A DNA stretch of 31,660 nt from Octopus sinensis (taxonomy: Eukaryota). A model generated the notes under the pieces. That model made no database searches, was not told where the DNA came from, and saw only the letters and a list, made by a program, of their open reading frames with translations. Where the stretch lies: contig NW_021832179.1 of assembly GCF_006345805.1 (NCBI RefSeq), positions 1-31,660 on the forward strand, read 5' to 3'. How positions within the stretch are numbered: position 1 is the stretch's first letter; every line of letters starts with the position of its first letter. A program made the position numbers and the translations under genes. Positions 5,403 to 29,633 of the stretch are shown here, one piece after another.

Positions 5403-5567
5403 GATTTCGAATTTTGGCACAAGGCCAGCAATCTCGGGGGGAGCGGTAAGTAGATCACATCGACCCCAGTGCTTAACTGGTACCTATTTTATCGACTTCG
5501 AAAGGATGAAAGATAAAGTCGACCTCGGTGTAGTTTGAACTCATAACGTAGCGGCAGACGAAATACC
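5403..5567 (-). mobile_element. SINE family A (ggccttgtgccaaaatt tail), 5'-incomplete
   Basis: Contains the core atcgaccccagtg...gaaaggatgaaag..aaagtcgacctcgg. Confidence 0.85.
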
Positions 5568-5789
5568 AATTTCTTTACTACCCACAAGGGGCCAAACACA
5601 GAGAGGACAAATAAGGACAGACAAACGGATTAAGTCGATTATATCGACCCCAGTGCGTAACTGGTATTATTTAATCGACCCCAAAAGGATGATGAAAGGC
5701 AAGTCGACCTCGCGAATTTGAACTCAGAACAGTAACGGCAGACTAAATAGCGCTAAGCATTTCGCCCAGCGTACTAACGATTCTGCCAG
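5568..5789 (-). mobile_element. SINE family A with Tx1-like 3' tail
   Basis: Full body similar to 801-1015. Confidence 0.9.
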
Positions 5790-7626: not shown

Positions 7627-8780
7627 TATGTTTGACTTTTGCTTTATGTCTGTACAAGTTGGCTCCAAGTCTCACCCAGAGACCTCAAGAGACAACAGGT
7701 TAGAAGTTCTGTGCCATATATTTGGGGCTTTTTTTTTTTTTTGGTGTTGTACCAGTGAATGTCTAATGCATAAAAATAAAAAATAAACAAAAAAAAAATA
7801 AATAAAAATAAAAAATTTTAAAAAATTAAAAAATTTTTTTTTACCCTTTGGATTACATAGAGAGTATTTTGCGTAGGATATGAGCAGTTCCCATGAGCAC
7901 TATCTTTGAATTTCTGCCATTGGGGTTTCCTGGTATCTGAGTTAGGTAGCAATCAGTCCCTTTCGCTATCATTCCCAGGGCACCTATGACAACAGGTATT
8001 GTTTTGGTCTTCAGCTTCCACATTTTGCTGATTTCTATTTCAAGATCTTTATATTGCTCAGTTTTTGGTGGTCTTGACAGATACGTTTATATCGATTGGG
8101 ACAGTCATATCAATGAGGAGGCATGTTCTTTGTCTGAAGTCTTTCAATATGATGTCTGGCCTATTGCATCTATCTTCCTGTCAGTTGAATGGTGAAGTTC
8201 AGAGGAGTGAGATGTGGTCATTTTCAAGCACAGGAGGTGGATGTGTTCCCACCAGTTTTTTTCATGGGGCAATCCAGGTTTTTGCAAATTACCCAGTGAA
8301 TATATTGTGCTGCTCATACTACTGACCTACTGGGTACTCTGTAGGCGCTAGAAGACTGCATTTCGAGACAACATGGTCAATGGTTTCATTTTGTTGTCGG
8401 CATACACGACATGTTGGGCTACTGCCGTTCTTTAATATGTTGCCTGGTAGTTTCTTGTTGGTAGGCATTGATCTTGGGCTGCTATGATAAACCCCTCTGT
8501 TTCAGATTTTAAACCAGAGGCCATTAGCCATTGATGGGTCAGGGCTTTGTCGATATCTGCATTATTCGCTCTCTTTGGGTATTTGCCATAGAGAGGTTTT
8601 TCTTGCCATTTATTATTCAGAATATCTAAGGCCGCAGTTTTGGCACGGGTTTTCATGCGCTTAGCTTTTTCTGTGCTTGTTTCTTGTATGTCTATCTCTA
8701 ATTCCAAAATTGGTTGTATTCGGAATTCACTTAGATATTCCTTTGCCTGTTTTGTGACTGAGTAAGATGCTTTCTTGTTT
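7626..8780 (-). mobile_element. 5'-truncated R4/Dong-like non-LTR retrotransposon (RLE endonuclease), frameshifted; coding remnant 7853-8780
   Basis: Motifs include KWQEKPLYGKY, ETEGFIIAAQDQCLPTRNY, a CCHC finger CRVCRQQNETIDHVVSKC, RPDII...LIDMTVP (PD-D/E-xK type) and the C-terminus IVLMGTAHILRKILSM*. (TTA)n lies on both flanks. Confidence 0.9.
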
Positions 8781-8831
8781 TTATTATTATTATTATTATT
8801 ATTATTGTTATTCATTATTATATTATTATTA

Positions 8832-8879
<48 letters not shown>

Positions 8880-14589: not shown

Positions 14590-16395
14590 AAAGAACTGTG
14601 AGCGATTGGCGTTCGTGTTGCCAGCATTTTCTTTTTCGCGTTAATCATTATTTGATCCCTGTTAGACGTAAGTCACATTGTTGATTAATCGTTGAAGGTC
14701 TCCCGCAAGGGTGTACCTATTGTTTAACTACACTGTTGAATTTTTGAATTGCTAGGGGCTGTGTGTTTTTTTTCTGTTTTTTTTTTTTTTTTGCTGTGTT
14801 TTTATAATTGTTTTCTTTCCTATTTATGGGTGAAGTAGTGAAAAAAGGAAAGATGGAAAGCGAACCAGTCCCAGCCGGCAGCGGCTGGAAGAAGTTTAAC
14901 TGCAGAGATACAACAGGTTCGAGAGGTGAAGACGGAGAGAAAGACGGTAAAGGAGTTTAACAGACTGATCGAAAAGGAGGGAACCAGTTTGAGGTTGACC
15001 CCGCCACAAGAAATGACAGCTAGTGTGACGAGCGAACAGTGGTATATAGAACGCTGTCCACGGCAACGAAAAGAATTGAAATAGCTACGGTGGAAGCCAT
15101 GGAAGAGTGTTTAAAGGAGGTAAAGAGCCTCACAACATTCTATACCAGAGGGAAAAAATACGGCTCAGCGGAGGTAAGCTTCGCTAGCGAGCAACAAGCG
15201 ATAAACCACTCCACTGTGGCGCTAAGGACGCCAGAATGGGTACTACTGCCGACTTACTGTGGCAGACGATTGTCCAGGGTAAGGATAGGTAGAGTACCCC
15301 CGGAGACTGAGGAGGCGTGGCTGGTGGCTGCCATTATGTATAATACGGAGGAGGAAGCGAAAGTTTGAAAAGTAACGAGAAAAAAAGAGGTAAACTGATG
15401 GGGATACGGCCTCAAGGTGGCGCTTCAGGTCAGTTTTCAGGACCTACACAAGATAGCGGAGGAGGTGATACTGCCGGAGAAAGTGAGATTAAGAGTAGTG
15501 GTGGCGGGAAGACCTCCAACATGTGACCAGTGTGGAGCAAGGGTACACATGAGTGCAAGGTGTTCCCAGAATGACGAGAAAGGTGAACACGAACAGCAGC
15601 AACAGGGTGACGAGCAGGAGCAAAAATACCGAACTGGAGACCCCAGTGAGTGAGAAGTGTCCGGAGAAGGTGGAGGAGGAATATACGGTGGTAAATAGGG
15701 AAAAGAAAAGAAAGGAAAAGGTGGACTCATCGCCAAAGAGTCCACTAAAGAAGAGGAAGGAAAATAAAGAGGAAGAGACACAGAAGGAGATTCCAACAAC
15801 AACAACAAGGGAAGCCAACGTGGAAAATCAAGTGGAAATACAGGAACAAGTAACAAAAACAAAAAACGAAAAAAGAAATGGTGTATGGTGACATATTCGA
15901 AAAACACGGAAATTGAAAAGAGAATAACCAAAATGAAGTCGGTGGTGAGAGTGAAGTTAACAACGGAATATTATCCAGAGAACACCAACGCAATTGTGAT
16001 TGACCAAGAGAGATGTGCAAGATTGAGAGAATTGTTTGGAAATAAGAGAAACTCAGCAGGAGTACGCGAGGAGTTCGATGACTTGCTGCCAGTGATAGAT
16101 TATGAGGACCTAATACCGTACATAAAATGGTGAAAAAAAGTAAGAAAATATTTGGAATTTTAATGACAGTAAAACTGATACAAAAAGAGAAAAAAGAAAA
16201 AAAGATATAAAAATATTTAACTAAAACATTTAAAATGATATTGCTTGCGAGTGGGGAGCATGCAGCCATTTCACTTCCATTATTATAATTTATTCTTCAT
16301 TCATTCGTTTTATGTTTTATGTCCCCACTGTAGTGTCCTGTTTGTCCTTGTGCTGTCCCCTCTGCGTTACGGCCGTAGTGCTAAAAAAAAAAAGA
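14590..16395 (+). mobile_element. ORF1-only (HAL1-like) non-autonomous retroelement; decayed gag-like ORF ~14826-16288
   Basis: ORFs 15039-15368 and 15417-15653 share a frame and contain a CX2CX4HX4C knuckle (CDQCGARVHMSARC, 15522-15563), followed by a K/E-rich tail. No endonuclease or RT motifs were seen. A short 3' UTR with a tgtccttg..tgtcccctctg motif precedes a poly(A) at 16383-16393. The 5' boundary is approximate. Confidence 0.65.
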
Positions 16396-17139: not shown

Positions 17140-18060
17140 ATTTTTACTGTCTTGTTCTCACTATCCTGTTCTTGTTACCACTTTCACCCTCCGCAAAAAA
17201 TCTCAAATTTTATTTAATATTGCTTTGCGAGGAGGACTGTTTCAACGAAGCCGCGTATTGTCCTTGCCTTTGTAACGCGGAGTAGATGAAACAGGGACAA
17301 TTGAAGAAAGGGGAATATTCTTTATGTTGCATGTCTCGTTTCTCTGTTTGTTTTTTTCGTTGTTCGAAAAATGTTTTTTTTATGTTTTCGTTCCTCATTG
17401 TTTTCAACTTTTTTTTTATGTCCTGTACCCATATATATGTAGGTATGTACATATATGTATGTATATATGCATATATTATTATATTATTTATATCATTATA
17501 TGGTCGAACGTCACACAGCCTTTTCCAAGTAAGTTTTATCTTAATAATTACGATGCGCACTCTTCTATCTCTACTATCTCTTACTATCTCTCTCCCTCTC
17601 TTGTTCTACACACTTTCTGGTTTTCTCTCCCACCTTTCCCTATTCTTCTCCTCTCCTCTTCACCGTTCCCTCTCTCGTCGCTGACACGCCAAGAAAGAGA
17701 ATCTATCTTTCTGCTCATTACCTTCCTAAAGACAAAACGTGCTTATACTGTCTCCTCTCATAAACTCGTCTTCCTAGCGTTCAGAATAATTTTTCTATCG
17801 TCTTGGCTTAACAGCCGTCACCGTTTGTTTTTACTGTCTTGTTCTTGTTACCACTTTCACCCTCCGCAAAAATCCCAAATTTTATTTAATTGGCTTTGCG
17901 GGAAGGACTGTTTCAACGGAGTCGCGTATTGTCCTTGCCTTCGTTGCATGTCTCGCTTTTCTATTTATTTTTTTCGTTGTTCGAAAAAAGTTTGTTTTTA
18001 TGTTTTCATTCCTTATTGTATTTAACGTTTTTTTGATGCCCTGTACCCATATATACATGT
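17140..18060 (+). mobile_element. Partial-tandem Penelope-like repeat (direct repeats ~17140-17445 and ~17828-18060)
   Basis: The block ttgttaccactttcaccctccgcaaaaa...cctgtacccatatata is duplicated, and the second copy lacks ~17271-17325. The first copy contains permuted hammerhead-like segments. Confidence 0.65.
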
Positions 18061-18087
18061 ATATATACATACATATGTACGTATATA

Positions 18088-18150
<63 letters not shown>

Positions 18151-18155
<5 letters not shown>

Positions 18156-18400
18156 ATCCAAACATGAAAACACAAAGAGAAAACACAACAACGCAAGGAC
18201 GTGGAACAAATATAGTATTATTGGACGTTCAGGAAGGAAGGGAAGAAGGAGGGTTAACGTTTCGAGTGGAGCTCTTCGTCAGAAACATAGGAAAAGGAAA
18301 GATCCAAAGAAGGGAATACAGAGGAAAAAATCGCCAACGGTACGCACGCGGTCACATTTTGAATGACCGGAAGGAAATAGGTGAAGAAAAAGTTCTTTCA
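18151..18400 (-). mobile_element. Penelope-like pseudo-LTR fragment (copy 2) with canonical hammerhead core
   Basis: The minus strand reads gttt CTGACGA a gagc-tcc-actc GAAA CG TT aac at ~18253-18286. It is flanked by long (TA)n. Confidence 0.7.
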
Positions 18401-24007: not shown

Positions 24008-24150
24008 AGTTTCAAATTTTGGCACAAGGCCAGCAATTTGGGGGAGGGAGTAAAGCGATTACATCGACCCCAGTGTTCAAATGGTACTTATTTTATCGAC
24101 CCGGAAACGATGAATGGCAAAGGCAACCCTGACGGAATCTGAATTTAGAA
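24008..24150 (-). mobile_element. SINE family A fragment
   Basis: Reads tttcaaattttggcacaaggccagc...atcgaccccagtg...ggtacttattttatcgaccc. Confidence 0.8.
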
Positions 24151-26382: not shown

Positions 26383-28320
26383 AGGAGATAAATAAAAATA
26401 TATGCATACATACAAACATATATGTACGTACCTACATCTACATGTATATATACATGCATAATAAATAATTATACGGAAGTACAGGACATCACAATAAGAC
26501 GTAGAGAAACAAAAAAGCCAAAAAACAAAAAACAAAGAAAAAACGGAAAACGAAAAACAAATACAGGACAGGTTACACAAGGCAAAACCCCCGTCATCAG
26601 CTGTCGCTAGAGGAGTCAGGCATGTTCGAAGGCATAACAGAACACTAATCCAATAGGCCTTCCTGCGAGAGAATAAAAATAAAATTTCAAGCAGCGGGGC
26701 ACAATGAGTACGAACACAACAAGACGTAACAATAAGACTGCAAAATTAAAATACATGTACAAAAACACACAAGAGGACGAACGAAAAAGCCTTTTTTCTG
26801 GCATAGACAAACAATAAAACTGCAAAAATAAAAATACATGTACAAAAAGTACAATTAGTTACAAAACGAGAAAATAACAAGAATACATACAGGAAATTAA
26901 CCACACAAGGGGACGAACGAAGAAAAGCCTTTTGCTGGCAAGGACGAAAGGTGTAGTAGCAGCGCGTGGAGGCAGTCTTTTCAATAGTGGTAAGTGGTAC
27001 ACGTGTAAAGGAATTTGTTTTATAGGCAAGGAAGAGGAAGGAGGAGGGGGACACGCGGCGAAGAGAGAGGAGGAGGGGGAGGGAGAAAGATTGAAGAGGT
27101 TAAAGCAAAGGGAGAGAGTACCGCATCTTCAATATAATAAATTAATATAAAAAAGGGGACCAAGAAGTGGATCGAAACGACGAATCGGAACGAACCTGAT
27201 GCGGGGCGCTGTCAGACAATAAGGAGATAAATAAATAAAAATATATGCATACATACAAACATATATGTACGTACCTACATCTACATGTATATAACATGCA
27301 TATATAAATAATTATACGGAAGTACAGGACATCACAATAAGACGTAGAAACAGAAAAAAGAACCAAAAACAAAAAACAAAGAAAACGGAAAACGAAAAAC
27401 AAATACAGGACAGGTTACACAAGGACAAAACCCCCGTCATCAGCTGTCGCTAGAGGAGTCAGGCATGTTCGAAGGCATAACAGAACACTAATCCAATAGG
27501 CCTTCCTGCGAGAGAATTAAAATAAAATTTCAAGCAGCGGGGCACAATGAGTACGAACACAAACAAGACGTAACAATAAGACTGCAAAATTAAAATACAT
27601 GTACAAAAACAAACACAAGAGGACGAACGAAAAAGCCTTTTTCTGGCATAGACAAACAATAAAACTGCAAAAATAAAAAAACAAAGTTAATCCAAACAAG
27701 AAAACACAGAAAAAAAGAGAAAAAAAACACAGCAACGCAGGACGTGGAACAAAAATGGGACAAGAACACAAAAACATCCACACAATTAGATGATACAAAA
27801 AAGGGACAACAAAACACTTAGATAGACGATACAAATAAGGCAAGGATGGGGCATTCGGAGTTTTCTTTCCTCAGTCGAGTTCCATATTATCTTTTCAATT
27901 TCGGCAGGTTATACTCGAGTTTGCTCTAATCTACCCAGCCCCAAGGAAAACTAAGCTAAGAGTATTAGATTCCTTGGAAGAAAGCAGTGAATTTATACGA
28001 AAACAAGGACGAAAAAAAGAAACGGAGAACGTTACACAAATACAAATAACAGGACATAACAACAGGTGTCTTTCGACTAAGGACGAATTAAATTAAGCTG
28101 GCATATGTTGAAATAAAGCCTTACGGCAGGGATACAAGATTTCACAGGCACAGGGAGGAAAATAGATGTTGCACGGACGACGGCCGAACCAAGAAAGAAA
28201 GATCAGGCTTGGCCGAACACCGGTAACTTGGGGAGAGAAGAAAGAGGGAGAGGAGAGAGGTAGAGGCAGAGGGACAAAAGAATTAAGGAGGGGCAAGAGA
28301 AAATGACAGGGACACAGTGA
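26383..28320 (-). mobile_element. Non-coding Penelope-like composite repeat with ~450-bp direct repeats (26383-26835 and 27222-27680)
   Basis: Two highly similar blocks lie ~840 bp apart. 27684-27750 shares agttaatccaaaca.gaaaacac...ggacgtggaacaaa with the pseudo-LTR family at 247 and 18151. Hammerhead-like segments are present. Confidence 0.65.
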
Positions 28321-29298: not shown

Positions 29299-29633
29299 TA
29301 GGTGCAGGAATGGGTGTGTAAGAAGCTTGCTTACCAACCACATGGTTCCGGGTTCAGTCAAATGGATTAAGTTGATTATATCGACCCCAGTGCGTTACTG
29401 GTACTTATTTAATCGACCCCGAAAGGATGAAAGGCAAAGTCGACCTCGGCGGAATTTGAACTCAGAACGCAGCGGCGGAAAAATACCGCTAAGCATTTCG
29501 CCCGGCTTGCTAAAGAGACCGATAGAATAAATGCCAGGCTCACAAAGAATAAGTCGTGGGGTCGATTTGCTCGATTAAAGTCGATGCTCCAGCATGGCTG
29601 CTGTCAAATGACTGAAACAAATAAAAGAATAAA
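29299..29633. mobile_element. Chimeric SINE: family B head (+), family A body (-, ~29360-29510), family B tail (+)
   Basis: Sequence switches at ggttcagtc|aaatggattaagt and again at cccggcttgcta|aagagaccgatagaat. Confidence 0.8.

Follow-up and report, generated by a model that had tools for sequence, protein, structure and literature searches.

In this work, we are addressing the question of whether a 63-nt site of Octopus sinensis DNA (positions 17251-17313, plus strand, of contig NW_021832179.1), which had been read from its letters alone as a hammerhead-like RNA with its three conserved segments in the non-circular order C-B-A, represents a true hammerhead and what role such a motif may have in this genome. 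The window, meaning the whole stretch analysed, is the entire contig of 31,660 nt; the genome has 2.72 Gb and is rich in microsatellites. Sequence comparison leads us to consider it quite probable that the site is a mutated copy of a hammerhead motif carried by each tandem unit of a repeat superfamily, the intact members of which would be pseudoknotted ribozymes cutting the repeat transcript after NUH. The blocks are named C, G and S as by Eckert et al. 2023 (PMC10085705), whose type SGC is equal to the C-B-A order of the sequence-only reading.

Direct reading confirmed the three segments as they had been spelled, in the order S-G-C. Block S is composed of a stem III strand (17251-55), UA (17256-57) and a stem I strand (17258-63), with the predicted cut at 17257/17258. 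A 3-nt linker joins the stem I strand to the stem II strand of block G (17267-71), which is followed by GUAA (17272-75) and the second stem III strand (17276-80), while block C starts with a stem I strand (17295-17300) and UUGAAGA (17301-07) and has two extra A where the family has one base. The lesions of this copy are C3U with G8 unchanged, A13U, C11.1U and one additional A, and, as already suspected, it is probably inactive as a ribozyme; in the survey of Perreault 2011 candidates with any core change were disqualified. The A-U pair that had been placed first in stem II results from C11.1U together with the additional A, and this register could not be maintained: in the family the first pair is G10.1-C11.1, after one unpaired nucleotide following A9.

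When both strands were scanned with a descriptor covering each of the six possible block orders, the flagged site was the sole match in the window; among 40 block-shuffled windows an SGC match was found in none (0/40) and a match of any order in four (4/40). Single-strand minimum free energy (MFE) folding of the site, a method that cannot display a pseudoknot, gave z = -0.25. No hammerhead was present among the Rfam matches listed for the window (150 of 167) or for an intact copy (7). Coordinates of the motif, of the units that carry it and of its relatives in the window are collected in Table 1.

Table 1. Features of the SGC-bearing repeat in the window
Feature	Coordinates	Strand	Basis or remark
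Unit 1, 5'-truncated non-coding tandem repeat, subfamily A1, ~687 bp	17142..17828	+	directly after TA-rich microsatellite
P1 helix, 5' strand (5' flank), partner 17285-17294	17237..17246	+	double changes in 7/10 P1 pairs, 74 copies
Block S: stem III strand, U16.1 (17256), H17=A (17257), stem I strand	17251..17263	+	sequence
Block G: stem II strand (C11.1U here), GUAA (A13U lesion), stem III strand	17267..17280	+	sequence
P1 helix, 3' strand, within 14-nt G-to-C linker	17285..17294	+	column scan, covariation
Block C: stem I strand, UUGAAGA (C3U), two extra A, stem II strand GGGG	17295..17313	+	sequence
3' tail, able to fold back on block C (predicted inactive hairpin)	17314..17337	+	MFE folds, 10 copies
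Unit 2, ending in (TA)n; without ~53 nt from A13 through block C	17829..18090	+	sequence
SGC motif in first unit of the tandem pair of B, a young sister subfamily; GAAA short of one A	27431..27488	-	
SGC motif, subfamily B, second unit; same A of GAAA missing	26588..26645	-	

The motif is abundant. An exact pattern of block G followed by block C (GAAA..CUGAUGA) had 2,391 matches in the genome versus one for the reversed control, and the fold was completed by a block S, which lies outside the search pattern, at 61 of 87 loci versus none of 119 chance matches in metagenomes. Copies of the SGC motif in metagenomes were accordingly rejected, the 119 matches being what chance gives. The non-coding units, 680-840 bp long and arranged in tandem, each carry one SGC motif and have a fixed 3' end in (TA)n; they were sorted by eye into at least seven subfamilies. 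Copies of A1, to which the flagged unit belongs, are 86-90% identical genome-wide (40 scored out of 4173 first-look candidates), while subfamily B is young (97-98% identity) and occurs also in the window on the minus strand, as a tandem pair spanning 26383-27700. Both of these B units are without the same A of GAAA, so that the change is either older than the tandem or was copied twice.

The expectation that CUGANGA and GAAA are kept in the family holds for the sister subfamilies and fails for A1. In subfamily B, whose units were not selected on the core, 72 of 82 have it intact. Among site-spanning copies, likewise not selected on the core, GAAA is intact in 18/19 of D1 and 17/20 of F, which gives 35/39 for both together, with block C intact in 37/39; the whole core is intact in only 2 of 48 spanning A1 copies. 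Of 228 distinct copies, 208 have A or C between A9 and G10.1. Since the published descriptors allow there only U or nothing (PMC10085705), the SGC descriptor, as we re-implemented it, fits only 3 of the 228, and 60 when any extra base is permitted; subfamily B likely fails the relaxed form through its shorter stem III.

For the structural analysis we aligned the window copy with 73 of 87 non-redundant candidates, 14 having been dropped by eye as truncated or duplicated. U16.1 is present in all 74 copies and H17 is U in 43, C in 24, A in 7 and G in none; N7 (U70/A4) is the sole position of CUGANGA with a recurring alternative base. The claim that all three stems pair, and with it the expected covariation, was borne out for stems I and III, where compensatory changes are found: 1.1-2.1 is CG in 56 copies, UA in 17 and other in 1; 1.4-2.4 is UA in 66, CG in 5, UG in 2 and other in 1; and 15.3-16.3 is UA in 56, CG in 12, UG in 1 and other in 5. 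Stem II can likewise pair, but shows no double changes.

The linker between blocks G and C, described as long, does have 14 nt, but most of it is not free. An unbiased column scan revealed a helix of 10 bp, P1, missed by the sequence-only reading, in which the linker pairs the 5' flank; 9 of its 10 positions pair in the flagged copy. P1 is paired in 86.2% of cells, and its double changes include 17-72 (AU39/GC28), 18-71 (GC37/UA15), 19-70 (UA60/CG6) and 23-67 (GC30/AU17/GU12). Pairing of the linker with the 3' tail, as in helix I of the published RNAs, was rejected, as only 65.1% of the cells pair. The UUC(C/U)U of the 3' tail may, tentatively, pair with the 5' flank instead (helix P0), which is 92.7% paired in the same alignment with almost no double changes. 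Over the whole structure 87.4% of cells are paired, compared with 38-53% when the strands are slid, and double-change cells number 125 versus 45.9 in shuffled alignments; neither value was reached in any of 500 shuffles (0/500).

Several results weigh against the proposed fold. All 73 added copies had been chosen for intact GAAA and CUGAWGA, beside the 14 of 87 dropped by eye. Counted by pairs, double changes are not above shuffles, either in the whole structure (14 vs 12.0, 104/500) or in the core alone (5 vs 4.8, 294/500). On a tree built on the motif and 130 nt of 3' flank, double changes, assigned by eye, fall on six branches, and as four of them are on the long branch to lineage A, independent covariation events are few; for stems I and III, three pairs have double changes on two branches, two of the three lying on one long branch. 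Stem II consists only of G-C, G.U, G.U and G-C; it is weak and invariant, and each of its strands has an equally good rival partner, namely upstream GAAGG with CCUUC (92.9% of cells) and the 3' tail hairpin (91.9%). Subfamily variants of stem II were absent among 48 U11.2 mutants, which comprised only scattered mutants and truncations. RNAalifold gave neither P1 nor the core stems. Of the MFE folds of 10 copies, most have the 3' tail folded onto block C, and 6 have P1 and stem III as a long hairpin. Neither single-strand folding nor RNAalifold displays the knot, and z-scores range from -1.6 to 0.1.

The 3' tail also raises the question of whether a circular hammerhead has been misparsed, either type I, with block C and the hairpin of the 3' tail completed by a GUC further downstream, or type II. 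The tail indeed has a stem II-like hairpin and a GUC(C/U)UGU pairing the stem I strand in 92.2% of cells. In none of the 74 aligned copies, however, is there a GAAA between the tail hairpin and this GUC, the only GAAA being 5' of block C; tandem repetition cannot convert S-G-C into a circular order, and the change that D1 has at 2.4 finds its match in the upstream strand and not in the downstream one. Both circular parses were therefore rejected for want of GAAA at the required place, and we regard a misparse as highly improbable.

A second alternative retains the ribozyme and changes its assembly: the fold would work only in trans or as a dimer, with the S-G loop of one unit receiving block C from a different unit in the multimer. 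P1 abuts stem I, so that P1 and stem III separate the loop from the first nucleotide of block C by ~15 bp with no unpaired spacer, which would strain a monomer; moreover, the element is tandem, and the minimal hammerheads of Penelope-like elements have been described as dimers (PMC4209133). On the other hand, published SGC ribozymes in which stem III and stem I are linked by 4-7 fully paired nucleotides were active (PMC10085705), and the 4x5-nt internal loop between stem III and P1 may serve as a hinge. We consider dimer-only action a possible, though clearly less probable, arrangement.

The repeat itself has the properties of a mobile element. Units of subfamily B measure ~838 bp and form arrays of 2-6 units at a spacing of ~830-840 bp. 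Of the 55 assessable B arrays, 54 share a single end point in (TA)n, which lies ~255 nt beyond the predicted cut; the 5' ends, 59 in number, are distributed all round the unit. Divergence between B units is 0.53% within an array (59 pairs) and 1.16% between arrays (2,086 pairs), which fits re-use of one template; divergent inverted pairs of units are also present. No shared coding open reading frame (ORF) was found among 105 long frames in 194 loci, and Pfam returned nothing useful for 11 flanking frames. Partial tandem and inverted insertions, a fixed 3' end and a microsatellite target match, at the level of sequence arrangement, a non-autonomous Penelope-like derivative. The superfamily likely comprises non-long-terminal-repeat (non-LTR) retrozymes moved by Penelope-like elements, with an SGC hammerhead in place of type I. 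A point against is that the one autonomous Penelope-like family compared shares no sequence with the units (30 loci, flanks).

A Neptune-like Penelope ORF adjoins one copy of the repeat, and it led us to the family used in this comparison, an abundant one with intact reverse transcriptase/GIY-YIG frames of 781 amino acids (L424-L431, e.g. G000:C3:65733000-65738500), of which there are many near-identical copies. Two of its loci have an upstream frame of 479 amino acids, and its 3' untranslated region is composed of short tandem repeats. When eight of its loci (5.5-7 kb) were scanned, no hammerhead was found on the sense strand and one candidate lay opposite the ORF.

If the RNA cuts itself, reverse transcription of a cut template might leave a trace in the 5' ends of the copies. 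A1, D1 and F copies were gathered by the linker alone (93 of 271, 30 of 210 and 30 of 332 matches, respectively). Among these 153 copies, 57 have their 5' junction at positions -2 to +18 relative to the predicted bond, an interval of 21 nt, versus 17 in the 42 nt from -44 to -3; for A1, 11 are at -2..+1 and 1 at -6..-3. The excess persists without the spike in GAAA (35 vs 17, p = 7e-10) and without positions of TA microhomology (17 in 9 nt vs 17 in 42 nt, p = 2e-5). This pile-up immediately downstream of the predicted cut is, in our view, likely a relic left by self-cleavage: a template ending at the predicted bond would explain the step, its rival being stalling inside the hairpin. In the young subfamily B the excess is weak (4/59 in -2..+12, p = 0.02), and most of its copies have the triplet GUU, both of which tell against the interpretation. 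GUU is a slower triplet for hammerhead cleavage. As a separate observation, internal deletions in L136 and L523 (the same place) and in L449 join the 5' flank directly to nucleotide 1.1 and thus end at the predicted cut, via short microhomology.

The junctions bear on a further explanation, according to which the motif has a conserved structure without catalytic activity, or is the relic of a ribozyme retained for packaging or recognition by the reverse transcriptase, and the junctions come from stalling of this enzyme in the P1/stem III hairpin and from TA microhomology. It would agree with the weak and invariant stem II, with MFE folds preferring two nested hairpins that hide block C and with the amplification of A1 even though 41 of 46 site-spanning copies are without GAAA; for an anole Penelope-like element, hammerhead cleavage was dispensable in vitro (PMC11167929). 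It accords poorly with H17 never being G, with covariation of stem I at the pair beside the cut, with the intact core of the youngest family and with a junction excess that begins at the predicted bond and survives the removal of TA positions. We judge it rather improbable, and an active ribozyme in the young subfamilies is likely.

For the preferred reading, a self-cutting SGC motif in each unit, the following course of events may be proposed. During transcription P1 and stem III would form a long hairpin with the strands for stems I and II exposed in its loop, into which block C would dock before the 3' tail emerges, and the RNA would cut. After cutting, the 3' tail would fold onto block C and switch the ribozyme off, and this off state would leave a ligated circle or an uncut multimer as the surviving template. 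A nicked (TA)n site, ~255 nt beyond the cut, could then prime a Penelope-like reverse transcriptase, which would proceed from one unit to the next and give tandem insertions; a cut linear template would make it run off at the cut or close by. Among the sequencing runs listed as containing a B unit there was none of RNA, and we do not count as evidence the 20 entries that match part of a unit. From the predicted folds we infer that the pairing of the tail with block C is such an off state and that the knot would form co-transcriptionally.

Subfamily A1 differs in one respect. GAAA is intact in 5 of its 46 spanning copies versus 35/39 in D1 and F (p = 4e-14), and block C, intact in 34/48, decays at the background rate, most other columns being changed in 0-11% of copies. 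There are ~30 different spellings of the GAAA lesion, scattered over the tree, and 16 of 92 A1 copies stop inside block G. Subfamily A2 is intermediate (GAAA intact in 8/15 spanning copies). Two pairs of tandem A1 twins are recent identical duplicates, the others being old or mixed. As the sole cause of this hotspot we disfavour general selection for dead ribozymes, given that block C has no excess of mutations.

One possibility, which we hold only tentatively, is that A13 of the template RNA has a modification resembling N1-methyladenosine (m1A), by which the ribozyme would be blocked and the reverse transcriptase halted or led to misread, each insertion thereby receiving its own lesion. The loss of GAAA beside a block C at background, the variety of lesions over the tree and the copies ending inside block G would all follow, and the changes, mostly A to T or G plus indels, have the reported m1A pattern (PMC6191711). 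The TRMT6/61A motif G[AUC]UCNA was tried as the recognition site and rejected: C stands at -5 in place of G and the -5/+3 pair of its hairpin is absent, although the -6/+4 pair is present, in lineage A alone. It is also difficult to reconcile with an m1A-like base that A2, of the same local sequence, is still partly intact; truncated A1 copies with the stem II strand are intact more often (11/22, p = 7e-4), which fits dead-template selection too, and CpG decay at G12 explains part of the GAAA loss. Alternatively, only uncuttable transcripts may give site-spanning copies, or an endonuclease may scar the DNA there.

Comparison with known systems places the motif nearest to type SGC, HRIMA-1 in particular (PMC10085705). 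Common to both are the S-G-C order, the core of CUGAnGA, GAAA and UH, the G10.1-C11.1 pair, a link of ~3 nt between stems I and II and one extra nucleotide between A9 and G10.1. The extra nucleotide is U in the published RNAs and A or C here; stem II has 5 Watson-Crick pairs there and 4 pairs, two of them wobbles, here; the partner of the linker is there the 3' tail (helix I) and here the 5' flank (P1); and the stem sequences are unrelated by eye. The 583 published SGC examples all come from metatranscriptomes, of soil and spruce, and lie beside hairpin ribozymes, whereas here the motif belongs to a genomic repeat; five of the published SGC RNAs cleaved at the predicted site. RefSeq was searched in that study, which gives a known-organism genome as the source for one GCS candidate only; whether this family was among the 2023 set, a question the sequence-only reading had left undecided, is thus answered in the negative.

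With metazoan non-LTR retrozymes (PMC7229834; Li et al. 2026, bioRxiv 10.64898/2026.07.22.740005) the repeat shares a dispersed, non-coding tandem build of one to several units, a single hammerhead in each of them, low GC and the absence of LTRs. Retrozymes have by definition a type I hammerhead, and only type I/III search models were used for them, whereas the hammerhead here is SGC; their units typically measure 150-450 bp, reported up to 972, against 680-840 bp here; most animal retrozyme circles are predicted with a free ribozyme (PMC7229834), unlike the self-pairing off state predicted here; and known retrozymes are expressed as monomeric linear and circular RNA, whereas here a circle is a predicted form. 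Penelope-like elements and their pseudo-LTR (pLTR) hammerheads (PMC4209133; bioRxiv 10.1101/2021.04.23.441226; PMC11167929) are similar in partial tandems, 5' truncation, (TA)n targets, inverted 5'-truncated partner copies, a fixed internal start of reverse transcription and an unpaired base 5' of stem II. Their hammerhead is a minimal dimeric type I, whereas the units here have no ORF, an SGC motif with a real stem III of 4-5 bp and no sequence link to the one autonomous family compared.

Other repeats were noticed in the window. Minimal type I hammerheads of the Penelope-like kind lie on the minus strand at 346-376 and 18253-18282, with a remnant at 27852-27874; they have the order C-G-S, an extra A after A9 and a palindromic stem III, and they sit in a different repeat, also (TA)n-ended, one being tail-to-tail with unit 2. 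A core of 77 nt, resembling a short interspersed nuclear element, is dispersed in five copies (858-934, 5439-5515, 5623-5699, 24043-24119 and 29360-29436). A frame of 133 amino acids at 8432-8833 (minus strand) had no Pfam match; we presume it to resemble the C-terminal part of R4/Dong-type non-LTR elements. The plus-strand region 15024-16133 is purine-rich and has several frames of 110-120 amino acids resembling a broken retroelement ORF1, with weak Pfam matches below the cut-off.

Our searches of the open-access literature turned up no SGC hammerhead described from the genome of an animal or from a retroelement, and the available text of a 2026 paper cites Eckert alone for non-circular hammerheads. 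The ribozyme type is thus a known one, while its scaffold, its host and its presumed genetic role are new. The farthest-reaching version may be put forward with considerable doubt: thousands of animal retrozymes would depend on a non-circular hammerhead with a scaffold of its own (a 5' strand stapling both the linker and the 3' tail), the first in a cellular genome; their 5' ends would mark the cleavage site, and in A1 a host modification at A13 would silence the ribozyme and be written into new copies as an error of reverse transcription.

SGC hammerheads were previously found only in environmental RNA with hosts unknown, and their origin and cellular relevance were left open by the discoverers (PMC10085705). 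More than 2,000 intact copies, subfamilies of different age and type I hammerheads nearby would provide them with a host, a job, which is the processing of a retroelement transcript, and a dated series in which origin by rearrangement may be tested against convergence. Surveys of animal ribozymes with type I/III or U-only descriptors miss whole families of this kind. Finally, the patterns of junctions and lesions may offer a rare in vivo readout of what hammerhead cleavage does in retrotransposition, a question still open for Penelope-like elements.
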